The notes beneath the pieces are model-generated. The model did no database searches. It had not been told where the DNA came from and was given only the letters and a program-made list of their open reading frames with translations. This document shows positions 2,919 to 41,808 of a DNA stretch of 64,000 nt, one piece after another (within the stretch, counting starts at the first letter, position 1; the number at the start of each line of letters is the position of its first letter). The stretch is from assembly GCA_965533275.1 (NCBI GenBank), contig CBESWG010000006.1:5634-69633 (forward strand). Direction: 5' to 3'. The DNA comes from an uncultured bacterium (GTDB lineage: Bacteria; Acidobacteriota; Aminicenantia; Aminicenantales; Aminicenantaceae). The translations under genes were made by a program, and so were the position numbers.

Positions 2919-4469
2919 TTAATCCTCCAGTTCCTTTAATTCATCGAGTTCATCCAAGATGGACCGGTTGGTCTCGAAATCCCAGAGCGTTCTGATCTTC
3001 AGGTCGAGCAGCGCCAGCCTGTTGTTGATCAGAGCCTGGACCAGGCTGAGCCTCTGCTGGGACAGCTGGAGCTGATAGAACTGCAGATCCTTGGAAGAGA
3101 GGTCGCCGTTGCGGTAGCGCTCCAGGTTGATGTCGTAGGTGAGTTCCGCGTTTTTTATGCTTTTTTCCGCGATCTCTATCTGACGTTTCTGGTTCATCAG
3201 GCTCCGGTAGGCTTCGCGGATCTCGGCTTTTATGCTCTTCATCTCTTCTTCTGCCGAGAGATTGGCCGTGTCGATCTGAGCCTGGACAGCGGCCAGGTGA
3301 TGTTTTTTCTGTCCCCAGTCATACAGGGGGATGTCCAGGGTGAGGGCGATCAGGTAGTCGGAGTTGGGCGAGTCGAAAATGTTGCTGAAATCTTGGTTTG
3401 TACCAGTCAGCCCGAAACCGGCTTGCAGGTTGGCCTTGAACTCATTCTCGGCTCCTGCCACGATGAGGTTATTCAGGGCATACTGGATCTCGATGTCCCT
3501 CTGCCGCAGTTCCATGCGGTTTTCCAGTCCGTGGTCTATGGCTCTTTCAAGATCCACATCCACGAGGGTTTTCTGAATGTCGGCGGAGACATCGATCAGG
3601 GCCTCCAGCTCCAGCCCCAGCAGTCTTTTAAAGCTATCCAGGCTGTTGGCGTGCTGCATGCGCAGATTTTCCAGCGAAGCCAGGCTGTTGTCCTTGGTTA
3701 TGTCCGCCTGATAGAACTCCTCACGCGCGGACAGGCCTGCGTCTACCTTGCTCTGGATGATGTTGAGGCTCTCCGTGGCGTTATCCAATTCCTCCTGGGC
3801 GATCTGGATACTCATCCTGGAATAATAGAGATTGAGAAACTGCGACGTAACCTGTCTCTCGATCGAAAGCTTCTGGATGGCATAGTTCATCTGTGTGTTC
3901 TCCAGGGCAAGCTCCAGCTCCTGGATCTGCATCATGGTGCGGTTATAGGTGAAGAGCGGCTGCTGGAGGTTTATGGACAGGGTGTTGGAGAATCCGGATG
4001 ACTTTTCCGCACCTGCGGCGGAACTCGAGGCTTCTGTCCAGTTGAATGTATTGGTGACGAACAGCATCCCGTCCGTCCATTTGACCGGCTGGCGGATGGT
4101 CAAGCCCGCCTGCGATCTGGTTTGGGTCTGGGTGTTGTAGTCGGCGATGAGATCGTTGAAGACCCTGCTGCTGGATGTGCGGTAGGGTGTCACGGCCAGG
4201 CTGAACTGTGACTTGAGCCCTGCCTGCTGGGCCATCAAGTTTCGCTCGCTGGTCACGAGCGAATATCCTGCCTGGCGTATGGTCGGGCTGTTCTGGAACG
4301 CGATGTTGAGGGCCCTTTCCAGGGTCAGTTCTTCTCCACGGGCAAGAGATCCCGGAACCAAAATGAAGGCAGCACACAAGCAAGCGGCTATCCTCCTCCT
4401 CTTCCTGAGCCCCAAATTCCATGCCTTGTGTAGATATTTCCGGACTGATGTATTCATGGACAACTCCAT
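2919..4469 (-). CDS. TolC-like outer membrane efflux protein (OMF)
   Basis: 516-aa ORF with a signal peptide. It shows the LTLERALNIAFQNSPTIRQA OEP-repeat signature and long coiled-coil repeats. It sits 3 nt upstream of the MFP gene. Confidence 0.85.
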   Translation of the reverse strand: MELSMNTSVRKYLHKAWNLGLRKRRRIAACLCAAFILVPGSLARGEELTLERALNIAFQNSPTIRQAGYSLVTSERNLMAQQAGLKSQFSLAVTPYRTSSSRVFNDLIADYNTQTQTRSQAGLTIRQPVKWTDGMLFVTNTFNWTEASSSAAGAEKSSGFSNTLSINLQQPLFTYNRTMMQIQELELALENTQMNYAIQKLSIERQVTSQFLNLYYSRMSIQIAQEELDNATESLNIIQSKVDAGLSAREEFYQADITKDNSLASLENLRMQHANSLDSFKRLLGLELEALIDVSADIQKTLVDVDLERAIDHGLENRMELRQRDIEIQYALNNLIVAGAENEFKANLQAGFGLTGTNQDFSNIFDSPNSDYLIALTLDIPLYDWGQKKHHLAAVQAQIDTANLSAEEEMKSIKAEIREAYRSLMNQKRQIEIAEKSIKNAELTYDINLERYRNGDLSSKDLQFYQLQLSQQRLSLVQALINNRLALLDLKIRTLWDFETNRSILDELDELKELED

Positions 4470-4478
4470 TTCCAGGTG

Positions 4479-7400
4479 TTAATCCTGGTCTGTTCTAACC
4501 CATTTCACTGCATCGGCCGTGAGGAAGGCTCCCTTGCCCTTATCCGTTTGCTCGACCGTGTTCGGTCCAGCGGACAGGCGGAATGTCCCCAGCAGGACCC
4601 AACCCTGGGCTGACTCCTGGATGTCGAAGGGGATCTCCTCGGTGCCGTCCTGGTGGCGTACGATGAAGTGTTTTTCCTCCTGGGTGGGGCGCCGCCGGCG
4701 TCCCTGGTTCCCGCCCCGCTGGCCTTGTCCGCCCCGGCCACCGCCGAAGTTCATGGTTTCGTTGTAGAAATAGATGTCGTAGCTGCCGCTTTCAGGGAGG
4801 TCAACCGTCCAGGAAACGGTGTTGCTGCCCTCCCCGACCTTGATCATGTGGCCGGTACGGAGGATGGTGCCGTAGAAATCCTGTTGAATGACCGGGCTCC
4901 ACCGGCCGGGAGGGTTGGTGGGATTGTAATCCAGATACTCCGTTTCTGTGCCCGAGCGGTCAAAGAGCCGGAGGATGGCCGTCCGGAGCCGGCTATCCCC
5001 CCCGCCCCCGGACACAGCGAATCCCGGATCCTCGTTGTCAACGATGTATTCCCCCTCATCGGTCTGTCTGTCTGCATCATAGGGGAAGGTCCGCTCCCCT
5101 TCGAAGAACGTCTCCGCATCCTCCGCGTTCTGCCTCATCATCATGAGGTTCATGGTGGCGGGAATGTTTTGGGAGATGGTTGTGTCCACCGTGAGCAGCA
5201 TGGGCCGGCTGTCCAGAAGAACGCCGATCTCTGTGGTGGTGTTCGGTGGGATGAGGACGGTGCGCTCGATCCCGGATGGAGCTCCTCCTCCCATTCTATC
5301 CCGTCCTCCTCGTCCCTCTATAATGTTGAGCTTGACGATCCCCTCGGCATCGGAAATGTTGGAGACGGGCAGGAGGATATGCGTGCGCTGCTGCTCTCCA
5401 TCCTGGACATTGTACATGCCCACCGCACCCAGGGTGAACGCCGGCACCTGTTTATCCGCATACCAGGCGGCCATCACAGGTTCCAGGTCGAATTCCTTGT
5501 AGGCGAAGAGGAATTGGAGAAAATCTTCTTCCGAGATGGTGCTGAATTTTTTCTCTTTGATGAAGGAGAGGAGCTTTTCGTCGAAGTTGTCTTCCTGAAT
5601 GCGGGATTCGATGGCGGTCATCAGATATTTACCCTTGGCCAGGATGACATCGTAGAGCTGGTCAGGATCCAGGCTTTCATCTTCCAGGAGCTCGGTCATG
5701 GAGTTTCCGTCCAGCAGGCGGTTGATCCTTTCCTGTTCGGTCATGCCGCCGCTCCGGTTGAAGCGGAAGCTGGTGGCGGAGATCCGGTCCTGTAGCCAGG
5801 ACTCGAGGGCCGAGTGGAGGATGGGCCAGCGGTCCGAAGCCAGGGTCGCAGTGAATGCAAAATAGTTCGGTAAAAGGTTGTATTTCGCATCTATATCGGA
5901 TTCCGTCACGCTGGAAAGGGCGTTGTCGCGAAAGCCTCCCTGGCCAGGCTGGGAACCGAGGAGGTTGCTGCGGACAAAGCGCGTGAAATAACTGTTTTGG
6001 ATCTGGGCGGATGTGATCTCCATCCCTGCGCGCGCACTGCGTCCCATTCTTCTCTGCATCATCCGCGACATGGATGCGAAGTCCGCTCCTTGGCACAGAG
6101 TCCCCATCTCCGGCAGAAAAACCGCCTGGGGCTGTACGGTTTCATCGGCCGCACTCCAGAGACGCTTGTGGCTGTAGAAATGGATGGGGACCTCCACCAG
6201 CGCCAGCTTTGTGAAGGGATAATCCAATCCGAGGATGACCTCGAATTCGTCCTTCAACTGGGTGATGGTCTTGGGCAGGTCTTCGGTGATGGCATCGAAA
6301 TACTGGGTGAAGTAATCATGCCCCGGAAGCGTGTAAAGCGTATACTCGACATCTTCGACCTTGAGAGACCTCTCCTCAAAGGGCCCGACTGTCAAGGAGA
6401 TCTGAGGCAGAGGTGTCCCGGGGCGGAAGGCGTAGACTTTGCCGCCGTCAGATGTTGTGATCTCAGACGGGCCCTGGGATACGGCGGTGCGGCCCTCGGG
6501 CACACGTACACTGAGCGTATACTGCGAGAAATCATGGGCCACCGCTCCGGGGAAGCGGTGACTGAGGGGGATCCCCGCCCGGGGATACCACCCGCATTCC
6601 GGGGTCAGATGGACAAACTTCTCGGATAGGAAGAGATATTTCTTCGGGACATTGTAGAGCCCCAGCTTGGAGGGCTTGCGGAGGCTTTCACTCTCGATAT
6701 CCGGGTAACAGTAGGCCTCCAGCGGAGTCCCGGCATAGTCGATCTGGATGGTGATTCCGGTACCCGGAGCCAGGGGATCCGGCGGCTGGATGAGGAGAAC
6801 GTGTTCCCCCCTGACAAAATCAAGGGGCGAACCGCCGGCAGAGACACGTCTGACCTGGAGCCCCGGATTCAGGGTCAGGAGCAGGGATTCAGCGGGCTCC
6901 TCGAGGTCGTTTTTGAGAACGATCTCCGCAGCAGCCGACAGGGTTTTGCCGGAATACTCCACATTCAGGAAACAGGATTCCATGTTCAGTGCGGGAAGCT
7001 CGGCATATTCCCGGCTCTCTGCCAGAAGGTCGCGGCGAAGGGAATCGACGCTCCGGTTGGACTGGATATGGACAAATATGAGGCCAAGAGCCGAGAGGAT
7101 GAGCAGAGCAGACAGGACCCCGGACAGGGCCGTGGTGAAAGCCGATTGCCGGAGCCGCTTGGCCAGGAGCACCGTGCCGAAGACGAATCCCAAACCCAGG
7201 AGGAGGATTGGAAGCCGCAGCAGCAGAAGCTGTGCGCTGTTGCCCAGTCCCATAAAATCGGAATACATCAGCGGCGTGTGGAAACCGAATATGTCGAGGA
7301 TGAAGTCGGCCTTGTTCCCAATGGCGATCAGGCTGAGGGCGGACACGGCCAGGCCCATCAGTATGACGGCTGCCTGGCTACGGATGACCACCCCCAGGAC

Positions 7401-37631: not shown

Positions 37632-37726
37632 GTTTCCTCCTGCAGGGCCGGCAACACGGACTTGATCACCAGATCATGCAGCCGGGACTATCGGTATCTT
37701 ATATAGAATCCTACGGCCTGACAAGC

Positions 37727-38631
37727 TCACAGGGGATAGGTGACCCCTGTGAGCTTCTCTGAGACTTCCCAGAGTTTCTTCGCTTTTTCCGTGTCTTTTG
37801 CCAGGTCATTGATTTCGACCTTTTTCGGGTACCCCCGCATCTCTCGCCAACCCCGGGGCCGTAGTAATCGCAGGCCTGAACATCCTCGGCGACCGCGGCA
37901 TACAGGGTCGGCAGGGCGCCCATGGTGATGTCCTGGGCCACGAATCGGTTCAGGAATTTGAACACACCGGCATGCCTCTGCAGCTCGGTTGCGGTCCAAC
38001 CGGGATGCGCGGCAGTGACCAGCGTGTTCACGCCCGCCTCGTCCAGGCGCCGCTGCAGCTCGTTGGCGAAGTAGATGTTGGCGATCTTGGAATCGGAGTA
38101 TGCCTTCATCTTCTTGTAGGGGCGCTTCTCCCAGTTCAGGTCCTCGAAATCCAGGTTCCCATAGTGGTGTGCCCCGCTCGACACGTTGACGATCCGGGAA
38201 TCGGGTGTGTTCTTGATCAGGTCGATGAGCAGCCCTGTGAGGGCAAAATGTCCCAGGTGGTTCGTGCCGAACTGGAGCTCGAAGCCGTCTTTGGTCTTGG
38301 AGAGGGGCGGCATCATGACGCCGGCGTTGTTGATGAGCAGATCCAGCCGCGAGTAACTGTCCTTGAACTTCTCGGCAAAGTCGCGCACGGAATCCAAGTT
38401 GGCCAGGTCGAGTTCCATGACGGTCAGATCCGCATTCGGGTGGCCCGATCTGATCTTCTCCGCCGCGACATTTCCTTTATCGAGGTTGCGCGGGGCGATG
38501 ATCACCGTGGCGTTCTTCTCAGCCAGGACACGTGCTGTCTCAAAACCGATCCCGCTGCTGGCCCCGGTCACGATGGCCACCCTTCCTTTCTGGTCGGGGA
38601 TATCGCTGCTGTCCCATTTCTTTTTCGGCAT
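37727..38631 (-). CDS. SDR-family oxidoreductase (retinol-dehydrogenase-like) with an apparent +2 frameshift near the 3' end
   Basis: TGASSGIG cofactor motif. The conserved C-terminal tail KKLWEVSEKLTGV is encoded in a different frame (ORF 37727..37999) from the body (ORF 37711..38631). The junction is at a GAGAGA/TCTCTC dinucleotide run near 37830-37835. Confidence 0.75.
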
Positions 38632-38665: not shown

Positions 38666-39250
38666 TCAATCTGTGTAGAGTCCGTTTTCCAGCAGATCCA
38701 TGGCCGCTTCGAAGCGCTGCTGGACGAGCTCCTCGAAGCTATAATCGGGGTTGAGCGTCATCCCAGGCCGCATAAGGTGCAGGAGCAGGATCAGGGAATC
38801 CAGCAGCACCATCAGTTCGAGGATGTTCCGGCAGCGGAACTTCCCCTCCTCCATAAACTGGTTCAGACGGTCGAAAAGCTCGGAGGGCATGAGATAGCGT
38901 TGAAACGTCTTCCCAAGGACCTCTGATTCGTCCAGTGAACACTGCATATAGAGCTTGATGACCTTCGGATTCATCAAGAGCCATCGATCCAGGTGTCCCA
39001 TGGATTTCCGGATCAACTCCTTGGGATCCTCTATCTCCTGCACAGCCAACGATATGGCGGAGACCATCGGTTCCGTCTTCTCCTTGTAAAGCTCCTCGAG
39101 CAGTGTCTCCTTGTCCACAAACAAAGCCCGCACAACTCCAGGCGCTAAACCGGCCCTGGACGCGATCGAATCCAGAGTTGTATCCGGGATGCCGCATTCT
39201 GCAAATTCATCAAGGGCGGCTTCGATGATCTTTCTTTGTTCTTCGCTCAT
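38666..39250 (-). CDS. TetR/AcrR-family transcriptional regulator
   Basis: N-terminal HTH IIEAALDEFAECGIPDTTLDSIASRAG. Confidence 0.85.
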   Translation of the reverse strand: MSEEQRKIIEAALDEFAECGIPDTTLDSIASRAGLAPGVVRALFVDKETLLEELYKEKTEPMVSAISLAVQEIEDPKELIRKSMGHLDRWLLMNPKVIKLYMQCSLDESEVLGKTFQRYLMPSELFDRLNQFMEEGKFRCRNILELMVLLDSLILLLHLMRPGMTLNPDYSFEELVQQRFEAAMDLLENGLYTD

Positions 39251-39276
39251 TTCTGGTTCCTTGTTTCGATCAGGTT

Positions 39277-40215
39277 CTATTCGATAGGTAGAAGCTGGTA
39301 CGTGTAGCTGCCTTCGATCCGGTCAGGTGAATTCTTATAGTGCATGATGTGTTGGCCGCAGTTGCTCCCGATCCTGTTTTCCTCGAGTTCGCCCAAGCTG
39401 TAAAGCACATCATACCCTGTTTCCCTCAGGTCGGACGCGATCGGCGGCTCCATCTCAACACCTGTCCGATCACTGCTCAGCCTGTTCCGCACCGCCTGCC
39501 CCGTCGGGTTAACGGGAGTCAGTTTGATGAAGAATTTCTCGGCCGGGAAATGCCTCAGCAGGGCGGCCGGATCCAGGATCAGATCATCCGAGATGGCAAA
39601 ATTCAGTGTGATCTTCCGGTCTCCCGGCTCAAAAAACTCTTTCCCCAGCGCCGCGATCCTGTCCAACTGCATCTTGCGGGCGGGGATCAGCCAGTCCCTC
39701 CGGGCCTCGTCCGTGGAGTGGACGGAGAACTGGAGCTGGAAGCGGCCAGGGTAGAGGTCGTCCTTGATCTCCTTGAGCCTGCGAAAGAATCCGTCGCTGC
39801 CGAGAGGGGCCATGGTCGAGACGGTGGGCAGCAGGCCAGGCGCCTGATAGCGGCCGGAAAGGGCAGCTAGCACATCGAGCACTGCGGGATTCAGCGCCGG
39901 TTCGCCCATCCGGGCGAACTGGATCTTGAATTTTGATACGGGTACAACCCGGTCCGGATACCGCAGTTCCACCATGTAGTCGATCTGCCGCATGATATCT
40001 TCGGCGGAGAGTATTCCCTGATAGAACTGCCCTGCATCGCAGAACCGGCATCCGATGGGGCAGCCGTACAGGGACGACACGATGAGCACCCACTTCTCCT
40101 GCCTGGAAAGTGGCGGCTGGGATGACTCTACAAACTCGATGTATCTGTTCGGGCTGGTCTCCGCAATAAACACGGTCGCGATATCCGAATGGGCGGTCCG
40201 GGCTACGACGTTCAT
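39277..40215 (-). CDS. Radical SAM protein, RlmN/Cfr-like core, lacking the N-terminal extension and the methyl-carrier cysteine
   Basis: CPIGCRFC is a CxxxCxxC motif. The flanks ...IEFVESSQ...WVLIVSSLYGC..., ARMGEPALN, TVSTMAPLG and C-terminal NCGQ align to RlmN motifs. The position corresponding to RlmN Cys118, 7 residues before the cluster, is Ile. Confidence 0.75.
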   Translation of the reverse strand: MNVVARTAHSDIATVFIAETSPNRYIEFVESSQPPLSRQEKWVLIVSSLYGCPIGCRFCDAGQFYQGILSAEDIMRQIDYMVELRYPDRVVPVSKFKIQFARMGEPALNPAVLDVLAALSGRYQAPGLLPTVSTMAPLGSDGFFRRLKEIKDDLYPGRFQLQFSVHSTDEARRDWLIPARKMQLDRIAALGKEFFEPGDRKITLNFAISDDLILDPAALLRHFPAEKFFIKLTPVNPTGQAVRNRLSSDRTGVEMEPPIASDLRETGYDVLYSLGELEENRIGSNCGQHIMHYKNSPDRIEGSYTYQLLPIE

Positions 40216-41108
40216 GGCCTTGCCTGCCTCAGCATCTCACATATCTGCATTGCGGCCCTGATCCCGTCTCCAACACAGATCCCGGCCTGGCGGTAGAGGT
40301 GGTTCTCGACGTCTCCAATCAGAAACAGGCGGCCATCCCGGCGCACCTCGTCTCTGGCCTTCTCAAGACCGGGCCCCAGGAAACCCAGCGCTGGCTCCCG
40401 GCCCACAGCCGCCAAGAGATAGTCTGCCTCCAGCATCCTCCCCTGCGGTTCTTCCTCTCCCGCTAGGTTGAGGAGAAGGCCTTCCCCGGCCGCGTCCACG
40501 GCCAGGAGCTGCGTGCCCTTCAACACGTCCAGGCCGTCGACCGCCTCTGCTCTCTCCGCGAGGAGTGGAAGGCAGCAGGGACCGGAATCTCTGCAGATGA
40601 TCGTCACCCTGTTGTGCTCCGCGAGCTGCAGGCCGTAGTCGAAGGCCGCATCCCCGGCGCCTACGATCCCCAGGTGCCGGCCGCGGATATCGCGGAGGGG
40701 GAATACCTCATAGAAGATCCGGTCTTCCGCGCCTTCCCGGATGATGGCAGCCGGAAGCCTGAGGGCGACCGTACCTGATGCGATCATGAGGAACCGGCAT
40801 GTGATCTCTCCACTGCCTGCAGCGAGACGGAAGGCCTCATCCTTGTACTCCACCAACCTCACGCAGTCACGAACGACCGGGATCTCCCAGCGTTCGAGCT
40901 GCTGCCTGAATCTCTGGACCAGGTCCGTGCCAGAGATACCCTTCGGAAATCCCGGATAGTTTTCCACGAGGTGAGCGTTGAGCAGGAGCCCCCCGATTTC
41001 CGCTTGCTCGAAGAGGGCAAATTCTACACCGGATCTTCTCAACTGGATAGCCGCAGCGATCCCCGAAGGGCCGGCGCCGACAATGGCGGCATCCAAACGA
41101 TCATCCAT
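40212..41108 (-). CDS. FAD/NAD(P)-binding oxidoreductase (thioredoxin-reductase-like fold, no CxxC redox centre)
   Basis: GAGPSG is the FAD GxGxxG motif. GIVGAGDAAFD is the NAD(P) motif. The preferred start is MDDRLDAAIVGAG at 41108, overlapping the isochorismatase stop. Confidence 0.75.
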   Translation of the reverse strand: MDDRLDAAIVGAGPSGIAAAIQLRRSGVEFALFEQAEIGGLLLNAHLVENYPGFPKGISGTDLVQRFRQQLERWEIPVVRDCVRLVEYKDEAFRLAAGSGEITCRFLMIASGTVALRLPAAIIREGAEDRIFYEVFPLRDIRGRHLGIVGAGDAAFDYGLQLAEHNRVTIICRDSGPCCLPLLAERAEAVDGLDVLKGTQLLAVDAAGEGLLLNLAGEEEPQGRMLEADYLLAAVGREPALGFLGPGLEKARDEVRRDGRLFLIGDVENHLYRQAGICVGDGIRAAMQICEMLRQARP

Positions 41109-41763
41109 CCGCAGACTCCACGATCTTCCGGATGTCGCCCACCAGTACCGGCACCGCGAAACCATGGCAGAGATTCAGGAGCGTAGCCCTGTGAAAGTCC
41201 TCCTGATAGGTGGCCGTCCCGTCCACGGCAAAAAAGACCTTAAAACCCCGCACAAAGGCCGAGCGGGCCGTGGTCTCGCAGCAGAGGTGGGTCAGGACAC
41301 CCCCGATCACGACCTGAGTGACACCCAGGTCCTTCAGGAGTTCATCCAGGCCGGTCTGATGGAAGGCGTCGTACTGGGATTTTTCGATCCAGATGGCCTG
41401 GGGGTCATCCAGCTCCGGGACGACCTCACTGGCGGGATCGTCCTCCCGGATCAGATCCGCCCACCACTCGGCCATAGCGCCGGCGTTTTCCTGCGTGTTG
41501 AGGTGCCTGGTCAGGACCACGGGCCGGTTCGCATCGTGGAACGCATCGACAAGCCCCCGGATCCCCGGGAGGATCGCGGCGGCGCTGGGCACAAAGGCAT
41601 GCGAGCTCGGATCCAGGAAATATTTCTGCATATCCAAGACGATCAGGGCCGCCCGGTCCGGCTCGAATCCGGAGCGCTCCAGGCTGCGCTTAACCGGAAG
41701 GATCTCGATCAGCTCCCTGGATTTCGCGGAGAGCGATGCCGGAAGGAAATAGGAGGCTTTCAT
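41101..41763 (-). CDS. Isochorismatase-family cysteine hydrolase
   Basis: ALIVLDMQKYF and the VVIGGVLTHLCCETTARSA catalytic Cys region. Confidence 0.85.
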   Translation of the reverse strand: MKASYFLPASLSAKSRELIEILPVKRSLERSGFEPDRAALIVLDMQKYFLDPSSHAFVPSAAAILPGIRGLVDAFHDANRPVVLTRHLNTQENAGAMAEWWADLIREDDPASEVVPELDDPQAIWIEKSQYDAFHQTGLDELLKDLGVTQVVIGGVLTHLCCETTARSAFVRGFKVFFAVDGTATYQEDFHRATLLNLCHGFAVPVLVGDIRKIVESADG

Positions 41764-41808
41764 AGGGCATAAAGATAAATCTCCTGCCCTATATAATCAA
41801 GTGATATT

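Follow-up and report, generated by a model that had tools for sequence, protein, structure and literature searches.

A widespread gene cassette pairing an RlmN/Cfr-like radical SAM enzyme with a thioredoxin-reductase-fold flavoprotein and, usually, an isochorismatase-family hydrolase

A stretch of 64,000 nt of contig CBESWG010000006.1, from an uncultured Aminicenantaceae bacterium, was analysed and is referred to here as the window. On its minus strand, genes for an isochorismatase-family cysteine hydrolase, a flavoprotein of the flavin adenine dinucleotide (FAD)/reduced nicotinamide adenine dinucleotide (phosphate) (NAD(P)H) type and a radical S-adenosylmethionine (SAM) enzyme resembling RlmN and Cfr form an overlapping cassette, which is followed by a gene for a TetR-family regulator (Table 1). 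The hydrolase stop and the flavoprotein start overlap by 8 nt (ATGGATGA, 41108-41101), the flavoprotein stop and the radical SAM start share the 4-nt ATGA (40215-40212), and the TetR ATG lies 26 nt past the radical SAM stop on the same strand. This arrangement had been described in an initial annotation of the DNA, with which the coordinates and sequences agree, and the same four genes were called independently on identical public contigs. The 298-aa start of the flavoprotein is an internal ATG, and independent gene callers choose the same one. The genes, overlaps and motifs of that first description proved to be real; its labelling of the methyl-carrier cysteine and the role that it gave to the TetR gene did not hold.

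Table 1. Genes and repeat of the cassette region, in window coordinates
Feature	Position	Strand	Length	Remarks
Isochorismatase-family cysteine hydrolase	41101-41763	minus	220 aa	First cassette gene; PF00857
Thioredoxin-reductase-fold FAD/NAD(P)H flavoprotein, CxxC-less	40212-41108	minus	298 aa	Pyr_redox_2
RlmN/Cfr-like (class A-like) radical SAM enzyme	39277-40215	minus	312 aa	PF04055
TetR-family regulator	38666-39250	minus	194 aa	PF00440 (TetR_N), E 7.3e-9
Inverted repeat ATAGGGCA-N15-TGCCCTAT	41762-41792	minus		8-bp perfect arms; before the hydrolase gene

By using a word-indexed search, more than 5,000 related 90%-identity clusters were found for the radical SAM family, and a full scan of 50%-identity representatives returned 1,023 sequences at E<=1e-3, 303 at E<=1e-10 and 93 at E<=1e-30. 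At least 557 matches were confirmed in GTDB contigs, with one genome per species. The bacterial hosts among the matches listed were Aminicenantes/Acidobacteriota, Cloacimonadota, Zixibacteria, Latescibacterota, Krumholzibacteriota, Eisenbacteria, WOR-3, KSB1, Chloroflexota, Bacteroidales, Ignavibacteria and Planctomycetota, and the archaeal ones were Thermoplasmatota and Methanomicrobia, including the cultured Methanogenium sp. MK-MG. The closest relative of the window protein among these matches also belongs to the Aminicenantes/Acidobacteriota (81% identity; locus L011, where L numbers denote loci of other genomes and P numbers representative proteins). Across phyla, the radical SAM sequences are 50-58% identical.

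The conservation of the gene neighbourhood was examined in 67 non-redundant loci with at least 2 kb of upstream sequence. In 66 of them, the gene immediately upstream of the radical SAM gene, and in the same orientation, is that of the flavoprotein; a hydrolase gene precedes the flavoprotein gene in 55, where all three genes are thus present. The same gene order, with unrelated flanks, occurs in Acidobacteriota/Aminicenantes, Cloacimonadota, Zixibacteria, Latescibacterota, Krumholzibacteriota, WOR-3, Eisenbacteria, Chloroflexota, Bacteroidales, Thermoplasmatota and Methanomicrobia, and the possibility raised in the initial annotation that the genes might fail to co-occur in other genomes can be set aside. 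A reverse check from the flavoprotein side found the radical SAM gene in two of three loci; in the third (L092), the match downstream of the flavoprotein covered only the first 29 radical SAM residues, and the neighbouring 1.7 kb includes 100 N's. One locus of the 67 (L022; OW818676.1, a 4.2-Mb chromosome) has a radical SAM gene (5995-6942) without the flavoprotein and hydrolase genes upstream, and by reading of the open reading frame (ORF) translations its neighbours resemble rpsT and ispF. The partners may be located elsewhere in that genome or be dispensable there.

Besides adjacency, the partners were also found as single polypeptide chains. Flavoprotein-radical SAM fusions are represented by P0247 (625 aa), P0273 and P0281, the cluster of P0247 comprising seven members of identical length from independent ENA and JGI assemblies. 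Radical SAM-isochorismatase fusions with the hydrolase at the C-terminus occur in Elusimicrobiota (P0276, P0282, P0286 and P0300); their order differs from that of the operon, and they are therefore not a read-through artefact. Single-chain fusions with each partner in other lineages imply that the three proteins cooperate. That they belong together and act as one unit is shown by the synteny seen across phyla, by translational coupling and by the fusion of domains; the flavoprotein and the radical SAM enzyme are the invariant core and the hydrolase is a usual, not universal, component. An arrangement conserved across phyla in this way lies far outside what chance would give, and the cassette appears as a self-contained enzyme module moving between lineages. 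In the locus of a 68%-identical relative (L005), an IS200-like Y1 transposase gene (3886-4566) lies two genes upstream of the cassette, which fits a patchy, mobile distribution.

It could be argued from the closely spaced, co-directional TetR gene that the window simply holds a local, TetR-regulated operon of genes brought together by chance. This explanation has a practically negligible probability and is refuted by the conservation of the pair and the trio in many phyla with different flanks, by the domain fusions in some lineages and by the absence of the regulator beyond the closest relative. A TetR homologue follows the cassette in L011 and at no other locus; in L005 and L012 (68-69% relatives), an unrelated TetR gene is found two genes away. 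The initial annotation had counted the regulator with the cassette, a placement that was rejected in favour of a local addition.

The radical SAM protein matches PF04055 of Pfam at 30.5 bits and falls below the curated cutoffs of more specific models, such as TIGR00048 (39.2 against 290 bits), NF000424 (38.3 against 530) and TIGR04432 (33.8 against 550), the Cfr models overall giving 34-38 bits against cutoffs of 468-550. Judged by these hidden Markov model (HMM) scores, it does not qualify as a true RlmN or Cfr, as the initial annotation had suspected. RlmN and Cfr are its sole solved sequence relatives (Cfr 9p0p, E 1e-5; RlmN, E 2e-4 to 2e-3). An AlphaFold2 model built from 37 homologues had a predicted local distance difference test (pLDDT) value of 87, and its Foldseek comparison with the PDB, a check that had been proposed earlier, returned the RlmN-type structures 6fz6, 4pl1 and 3rfa first (E 2e-10 to 3e-9), then Cfr (5e-8), with SuiB as the next radical SAM enzyme (3e-5). 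On the predicted model, the nearest solved folds are those of RlmN and Cfr.

The sequence carries the motifs VLIVSSLYGC-x3-C-x2-C, RMGEPALN, VSTMAP and SNCGQ. In a profile alignment (hhalign) with Escherichia coli RlmN, the reference being that of MG1655, residues 37-297 were aligned with RlmN residues 109-365 at 94% probability. The alignment pairs C52/C56/C59 with RlmN C125/C129/C132, RMGEP with GMGEP, QFSVHS with AISLHA, TPVNP with IPWNP and IGSNCGQ with IDAACGQ, so that C286 corresponds to C355. The motif-by-motif correspondence first noticed by eye (cluster, GEP, STxG and CGQ) was thereby reproduced. The window protein shares with RlmN and Cfr the partial TIM-barrel core, the CX3CX2C cluster motif, the GEP/STxG/SxH/NP motifs for SAM binding, the beta-strands ahead of the cluster loop and, towards the C-terminus, the CGQ cysteine, whereas overall identity is only about 20%. 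On the other hand, the N-terminal helical RNA-binding domain is absent, in agreement with the earlier description: the alignment begins at RlmN residue 109, the protein has 312 aa against 384, and about 35 residues of beta-strand lie ahead. The beta-strands before the cluster loop are all that remains N-terminally of the RlmN/Cfr arrangement. Proteins of the family are mostly acidic, with a median isoelectric point (pI) of 6.0.

It has been reported that Cys355 of RlmN is methylated by SAM and that Cys118 is the general base completing the reaction (PMC12871812); in Cfr, C338 within 'ACGQL' and C105 behave as the respective counterparts (PMC2836569). The position of Cys118 is occupied by Ile45 in the hhalign alignment, as the initial annotation had recognised, but that annotation took Cys118 for the methyl carrier and concluded that the carrier was lacking, whereas the Cys355 equivalent, C286, is present. 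Within the family, C52, C56, C59 and C286 are the only conserved cysteines, each found in 84 of 84 sequences, and the Cys118-equivalent position holds I, M, L, V or T, with Cys in one of the 84. These alignments show a family in which the predicted equivalent of the methyl carrier was kept, and the equivalent of the base or resolving cysteine was lost together with the RNA-binding N-domain. In its architecture, the protein resembles a class A radical SAM methylase, but it departs from the class in three defining respects: it has no equivalent of Cys118 (Cfr Cys105), no N-terminal domain and no score above the curated cutoffs. To our knowledge, RlmN and Cfr are the only class A radical SAM methylases, both acting on RNA and both needing two cysteines. 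Neither has an obligate flavoprotein pairing, unlike the window family, which is paired with a flavoprotein and often with a hydrolase.

The flavoprotein matches Pyr_redox_2 (PF07992; 60.9 against 26.1 bits, E 1.8e-16) and also Pyr_redox_3, stays below the cutoff of TIGR01292 (120.3 against 343.45 bits), and aligns end to end with structures of low-molecular-weight thioredoxin reductases (E 1e-26). Where thioredoxin reductases have 'GVSACAICDG', with the CAxC disulfide, it carries 'GAEDR-IFYEV', and no conserved Cys pair was found across 57 flavoprotein homologues from cassettes, which confirms its earlier description as CxxC-less. The invariant positions include the FAD motif GAGPSG (11-16, GxGPxG), E34, GGL, ENY, the second dinucleotide-binding motif GAGDAAFD (150-157) within GxGDxAFDY (150-158), GD (265-266) and RQ (273-274). 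The two-Rossmann-domain FAD/NAD(P)H architecture is shared with TrxB and with ferredoxin-NADP+ reductases of the thioredoxin-reductase type. The flavoprotein differs from TrxB in having no CxxC redox centre, and from a reading of the alignment it also appears to lack the typical C-terminal extension of those ferredoxin-NADP+ reductases.

The hydrolase is a clear member of PF00857 (Isochorismatase; 130.8 bits against a gathering score of 27, E 7.5e-38), and its best solved relatives are the structural-genomics cysteine hydrolase 3irv (6.6e-22) and EntB (7.3e-21). It reached none of the NCBIfam equivalog cutoffs, scoring 52 against 195 bits for PRK11440 and 20-50 against 174-378 for the others named (RutB, YcaC, PncA and BiuH, the last with 50 against 370). 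The fold is shared with isochorismatase-like hydrolases such as PncA, RutB, CSHase, BiuH and YcaC, and with EntB/PhzD; the Asp-Lys-Cys triad is common to the amidohydrolase branch, and the N-terminal segment is EntB/3irv-like. Among 50 cassette homologues, the triad residues D44, K128 and C161 are at least 95% conserved, as are SHA (54-56), H87, N89, WW (100-101), Y131, D132, E163, R167 and H191. The SHA, WW and H191 motifs of the family distinguish it from the hydrolases named above. With its triad complete and the SHA, WW and His motifs of the family retained, the hydrolase is predicted to be an active cysteine amidohydrolase.

The profile that the window radical SAM protein matches best is phrog_24834 (110 bits, E 2.5e-31), a phage family annotated 'unknown function', the members of which are about 332 aa long and about 30% identical to the window protein. 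Proteins of this type were found at no fewer than 485 IMG/VR viral loci. A scan of viral contigs with the motifs of the cassette family itself gave nothing, and only the sister family is viral. In the sister-family loci studied (L097-L099, L100 and L103-L182), the gene is part of phage modules for replication and nucleotide metabolism, alongside SSB, dUTPase, DNA methylase and GIY-YIG genes; RtcB was found in 6 of 80 loci and Tpt1 in one 394-kb contig. A cultured example is Bacteroides phage Versailles (ON453897.1, 15696-16691), and the best matches in a viral structure library were short COG0820-like phage proteins (template modelling score 0.74-0.80). Like the window protein, the sister proteins are short, have no Cys at the RlmN-118 position and keep the C-terminal cysteine, here in TCG[KN]. 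They differ in being encoded by phages or fused to other domains, and their loci contained no flavoprotein or isochorismatase/hydrolase partner. The fusions occur in metagenome-assembled genomes of Bacilli (P0346, P0365 and P0337; locus L095, 6001-8445), where a QueT-like energy-coupling factor (ECF) substrate-binding membrane domain is joined to the RlmN-like radical SAM domain, which is again short. P0346 and P0365 also carry a bona fide methylthioadenosine/S-adenosylhomocysteine (MTA/SAH) nucleosidase (224 against 169 bits), with the radical SAM domain in the middle. No riboswitch was found by Rfam upstream of the QueT-fusion gene.

These relationships bear on the possibility that the cassette enzyme is a diverged RlmN paralogue that modifies a base of tRNA, rRNA or DNA, with its partners carrying out further hypermodification steps. 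Its nearest solved folds are those of RlmN and Cfr, the equivalent of the methyl-carrier cysteine is retained, and JGI pipelines label members as 23S rRNA (adenine2503-C2)-methyltransferase; moreover, the sister family belongs to phage replication modules, at some loci near RtcB or Tpt1. Against a nucleic-acid substrate stand the scores far under the RlmN and Cfr cutoffs, the absence of both Cys118 and the N-terminal domain with which RlmN and Cfr engage RNA, and the mostly acidic character of the family. In addition, the radical SAM domain is fused in some proteins to an amidohydrolase of small-molecule type, and genes for RNA binding or RNA processing do not recur around the cassette in cellular genomes. 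On balance, base modification of RNA or DNA is considered rather unlikely.

The sister fusions could also be taken to indicate that no methyl group is transferred at all. The radical SAM queuine lyase QueL works beside the ECF transporters QueT/QrtT (PMC11130926; PMC12632869), and it is possible that the QueT-fused sister proteins are related to this enzyme (Clostridioides difficile CD1684, Q186P0). On this reading, the cassette enzyme would catalyse a radical reaction of lyase, isomerase or reductase type, in which C286 would serve as hydrogen-atom donor and the flavoprotein would re-reduce the thiyl radical or the cluster. The family-wide loss of the general base needed for RlmN-type product release agrees with such a reaction, and an obligate reductase partner would suit a net-reductive one. 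Nevertheless, the CGQ loop and the entire SAM-binding core align with RlmN and Cfr, and the MTA/SAH nucleosidase of the sister proteins fits the production of SAH as well as that of 5'-deoxyadenosine. A non-methylase reaction is likewise considered rather unlikely.

The explanation favoured here, if only tentatively and with somewhat less than even confidence, is that the enzyme would transfer a methyl group (as methylene) by class-A-type radical chemistry to a substrate other than the ribosome, probably a heteroaromatic one, while the flavoprotein would give electrons and the hydrolase would process an amide. Cys286 would first be methylated by SAM. A second SAM would then be cleaved at the [4Fe-4S] cluster, and the resulting 5'-deoxyadenosyl radical would take a hydrogen atom from the S-methyl group. 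The methylene radical would add to an sp2 carbon of the substrate, for which a heteroaromatic small molecule (a nucleobase, a pyridine or a cofactor, for example) is the most likely candidate. The flavoprotein would pass electrons derived from NAD(P)H, either to reduce the cluster or to resolve the Cys-CH2-substrate adduct reductively, a supply that is proposed because the internal Cys base is absent. Finally, the hydrolase may convert a carboxamide or a carbamoyl group carried by this substrate or by the product.

As to the nature of the substrate, we infer a small molecule instead of RNA from the missing N-terminal domain, the obligate enzyme partners and the transporter fusion of the sister family. 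The QueT-like domain hints at an imported small heteroaromatic substrate. Since an MTA/SAH nucleosidase removes both SAH and 5'-deoxyadenosine, its fusion in the sister branch fits an enzyme that makes both. Together with the full Asp-Lys-Cys triad of the hydrolase, these fusions lend slight support to the proposed substrate class. Several observations weigh against this methyl-transfer proposal. The flanking genes show no consistent pathway. The hydrolase gene is missing in 12 of the 67 loci, which indicates that it is not essential to the core chemistry, and a flavoprotein acting as a mere cluster reductase would explain the pairing equally well. Furthermore, the occurrence of the phage sister family in DNA-replication modules, sometimes near RtcB or Tpt1, makes a nucleic-acid substrate possible for short RlmN-like enzymes, and the retention of the CGQ cysteine is no proof of its methylation.

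A more specific version of methyl transfer would be a previously undescribed radical C-methylation, in which, after loss of the resolving cysteine, the thioredoxin-reductase-fold flavoprotein would reductively free the Cys-CH2-substrate adduct, with a heteroaromatic metabolite or cofactor in free form as the target. Examples would be purine C2, as in the 2-methyladenine that serves as a lower ligand in cobamides, or a carboxamide of a pyridine or deazapurine, later deamidated by the hydrolase. In ThyX/TrmFO and in BfaB/BfaA, which makes tuberculostearic acid, a methylene is attached and a flavin then supplies the reducing equivalents. The resemblance is one of analogy only, as the sequences are unrelated and these systems use methylene-tetrahydrofolate or polar SAM chemistry, with no radical SAM S-methyl-cysteine. 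Reductive release of this kind is regarded as decidedly unlikely; if true, a class A radical SAM methylase would for the first time be known to act on something other than RNA.

Clustering of flanking ORFs and a Pfam census of 240 neighbours revealed no family in more than eight loci and no consistent pathway. An MttB-family methyltransferase gene (MTTB) lies directly upstream in eight loci of one Krumholzibacteriota/Latescibacterota-like clade. The loci noted for corrinoid-type neighbours are L020, L026, L031, L032, L048, L056, L059 and L063 and, as a second group, L046, L057, L084 and L061. Pfam neighbours also include S-methyl_trans (three loci), Pterin_bind (two), DUF3786 (three) and NadA (two or three), and in several Chloroflexota the cassette is located between a DUF3786 gene and downstream genes for CooC-like ATPases. 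A corrinoid-protein-like ORF was additionally identified by reading in L020, and a homocysteine-S-methyltransferase-like gene was noted in five loci overall. No QueK or TGT gene was seen near the cassette in this survey. The reading of the cassette as a system for peptides made by the ribosome and altered after translation (RiPPs) was dropped, as no conserved small ORF or RiPP-type partner recurs beside it.

The corrinoid-type neighbours may mark a link to corrinoid methyl transfer or merely reflect synteny within clades. If the former were true, the cassette might methylate C2 of an adenine lower ligand, yielding 2-methyladeninyl cobamide, or take part in reductive reactivation or remodelling of corrinoids. 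Genes for corrinoid methyl transfer (MTTB, S-methyl_trans, Pterin_bind, DUF3786 and CooC-like) are the only recurring neighbours, RlmN chemistry targets adenine C2, and the hosts are anaerobes rich in corrinoid enzymes. Nonetheless, such neighbours occur in a minority of loci and most loci show no link; being largely within two clades, they are therefore not independent observations. Moreover, the hydrolase and the flavoprotein are not tied to cobamides, and no cobamide biosynthesis gene was seen adjoining the cassette. A corrinoid role is thus viewed as highly doubtful.

Within the window, the cassette is part of a minus-strand run of genes for PadR, a MacB/FtsX permease, the cassette proteins, TetR, a short-chain dehydrogenase/reductase (SDR) and an S9 peptidase. 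The inverted repeat sits in the 45-nt gap between the MacB/FtsX and hydrolase genes, with a GGAG ribosome-binding site in its loop and the proximal arm abutting the ATG, as seen at the window locus, and it could be a candidate operator or translational hairpin. A promoter and terminator scan gave a single promoter-like site, where 1.3 would be expected, and within the cassette no convincing terminator on the minus strand. Neither the window nor nine cassette loci contained a riboswitch or any other Rfam RNA family, and the PADLOC defence-system models gave zero matches for all four proteins. The C-terminal ~50 residues encoded by the SDR gene (37711-38631, minus strand) are basic low-complexity sequence, while an overlapping ORF (37727-37999) terminates in ...KKLWEVSEKLTGVTYPL, an ending that we take to resemble a normal C-terminus of short-chain dehydrogenases. 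A frameshift, real or caused by sequencing error, seems likely close to the 3' end of the SDR gene.

No entry for the gene combination exists in Pfam, NCBIfam, PADLOC or Rfam, and the literature searched contained nothing relevant on the combination, on RlmN-like proteins with isochorismatases or on class A methylases acting on small molecules, consistent with the statement in the initial annotation that no described system was recognised. The cassette enzymes represent a third branch, widespread but undescribed, of the RlmN/Cfr-like enzymes and have dedicated partners; the phage sister family is a second uncharacterised branch. The pattern of one cysteine retained out of the two, no RNA domain, a locked flavoprotein partner and usually a hydrolase holds over hundreds of uncultured anaerobic species. 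Identifying the substrate would give a function to a gene set that pipelines mislabel as 23S rRNA methyltransferase, thioredoxin reductase and isochorismatase, and would either extend class A methyl transfer to small molecules or reveal a new nucleic-acid modification.

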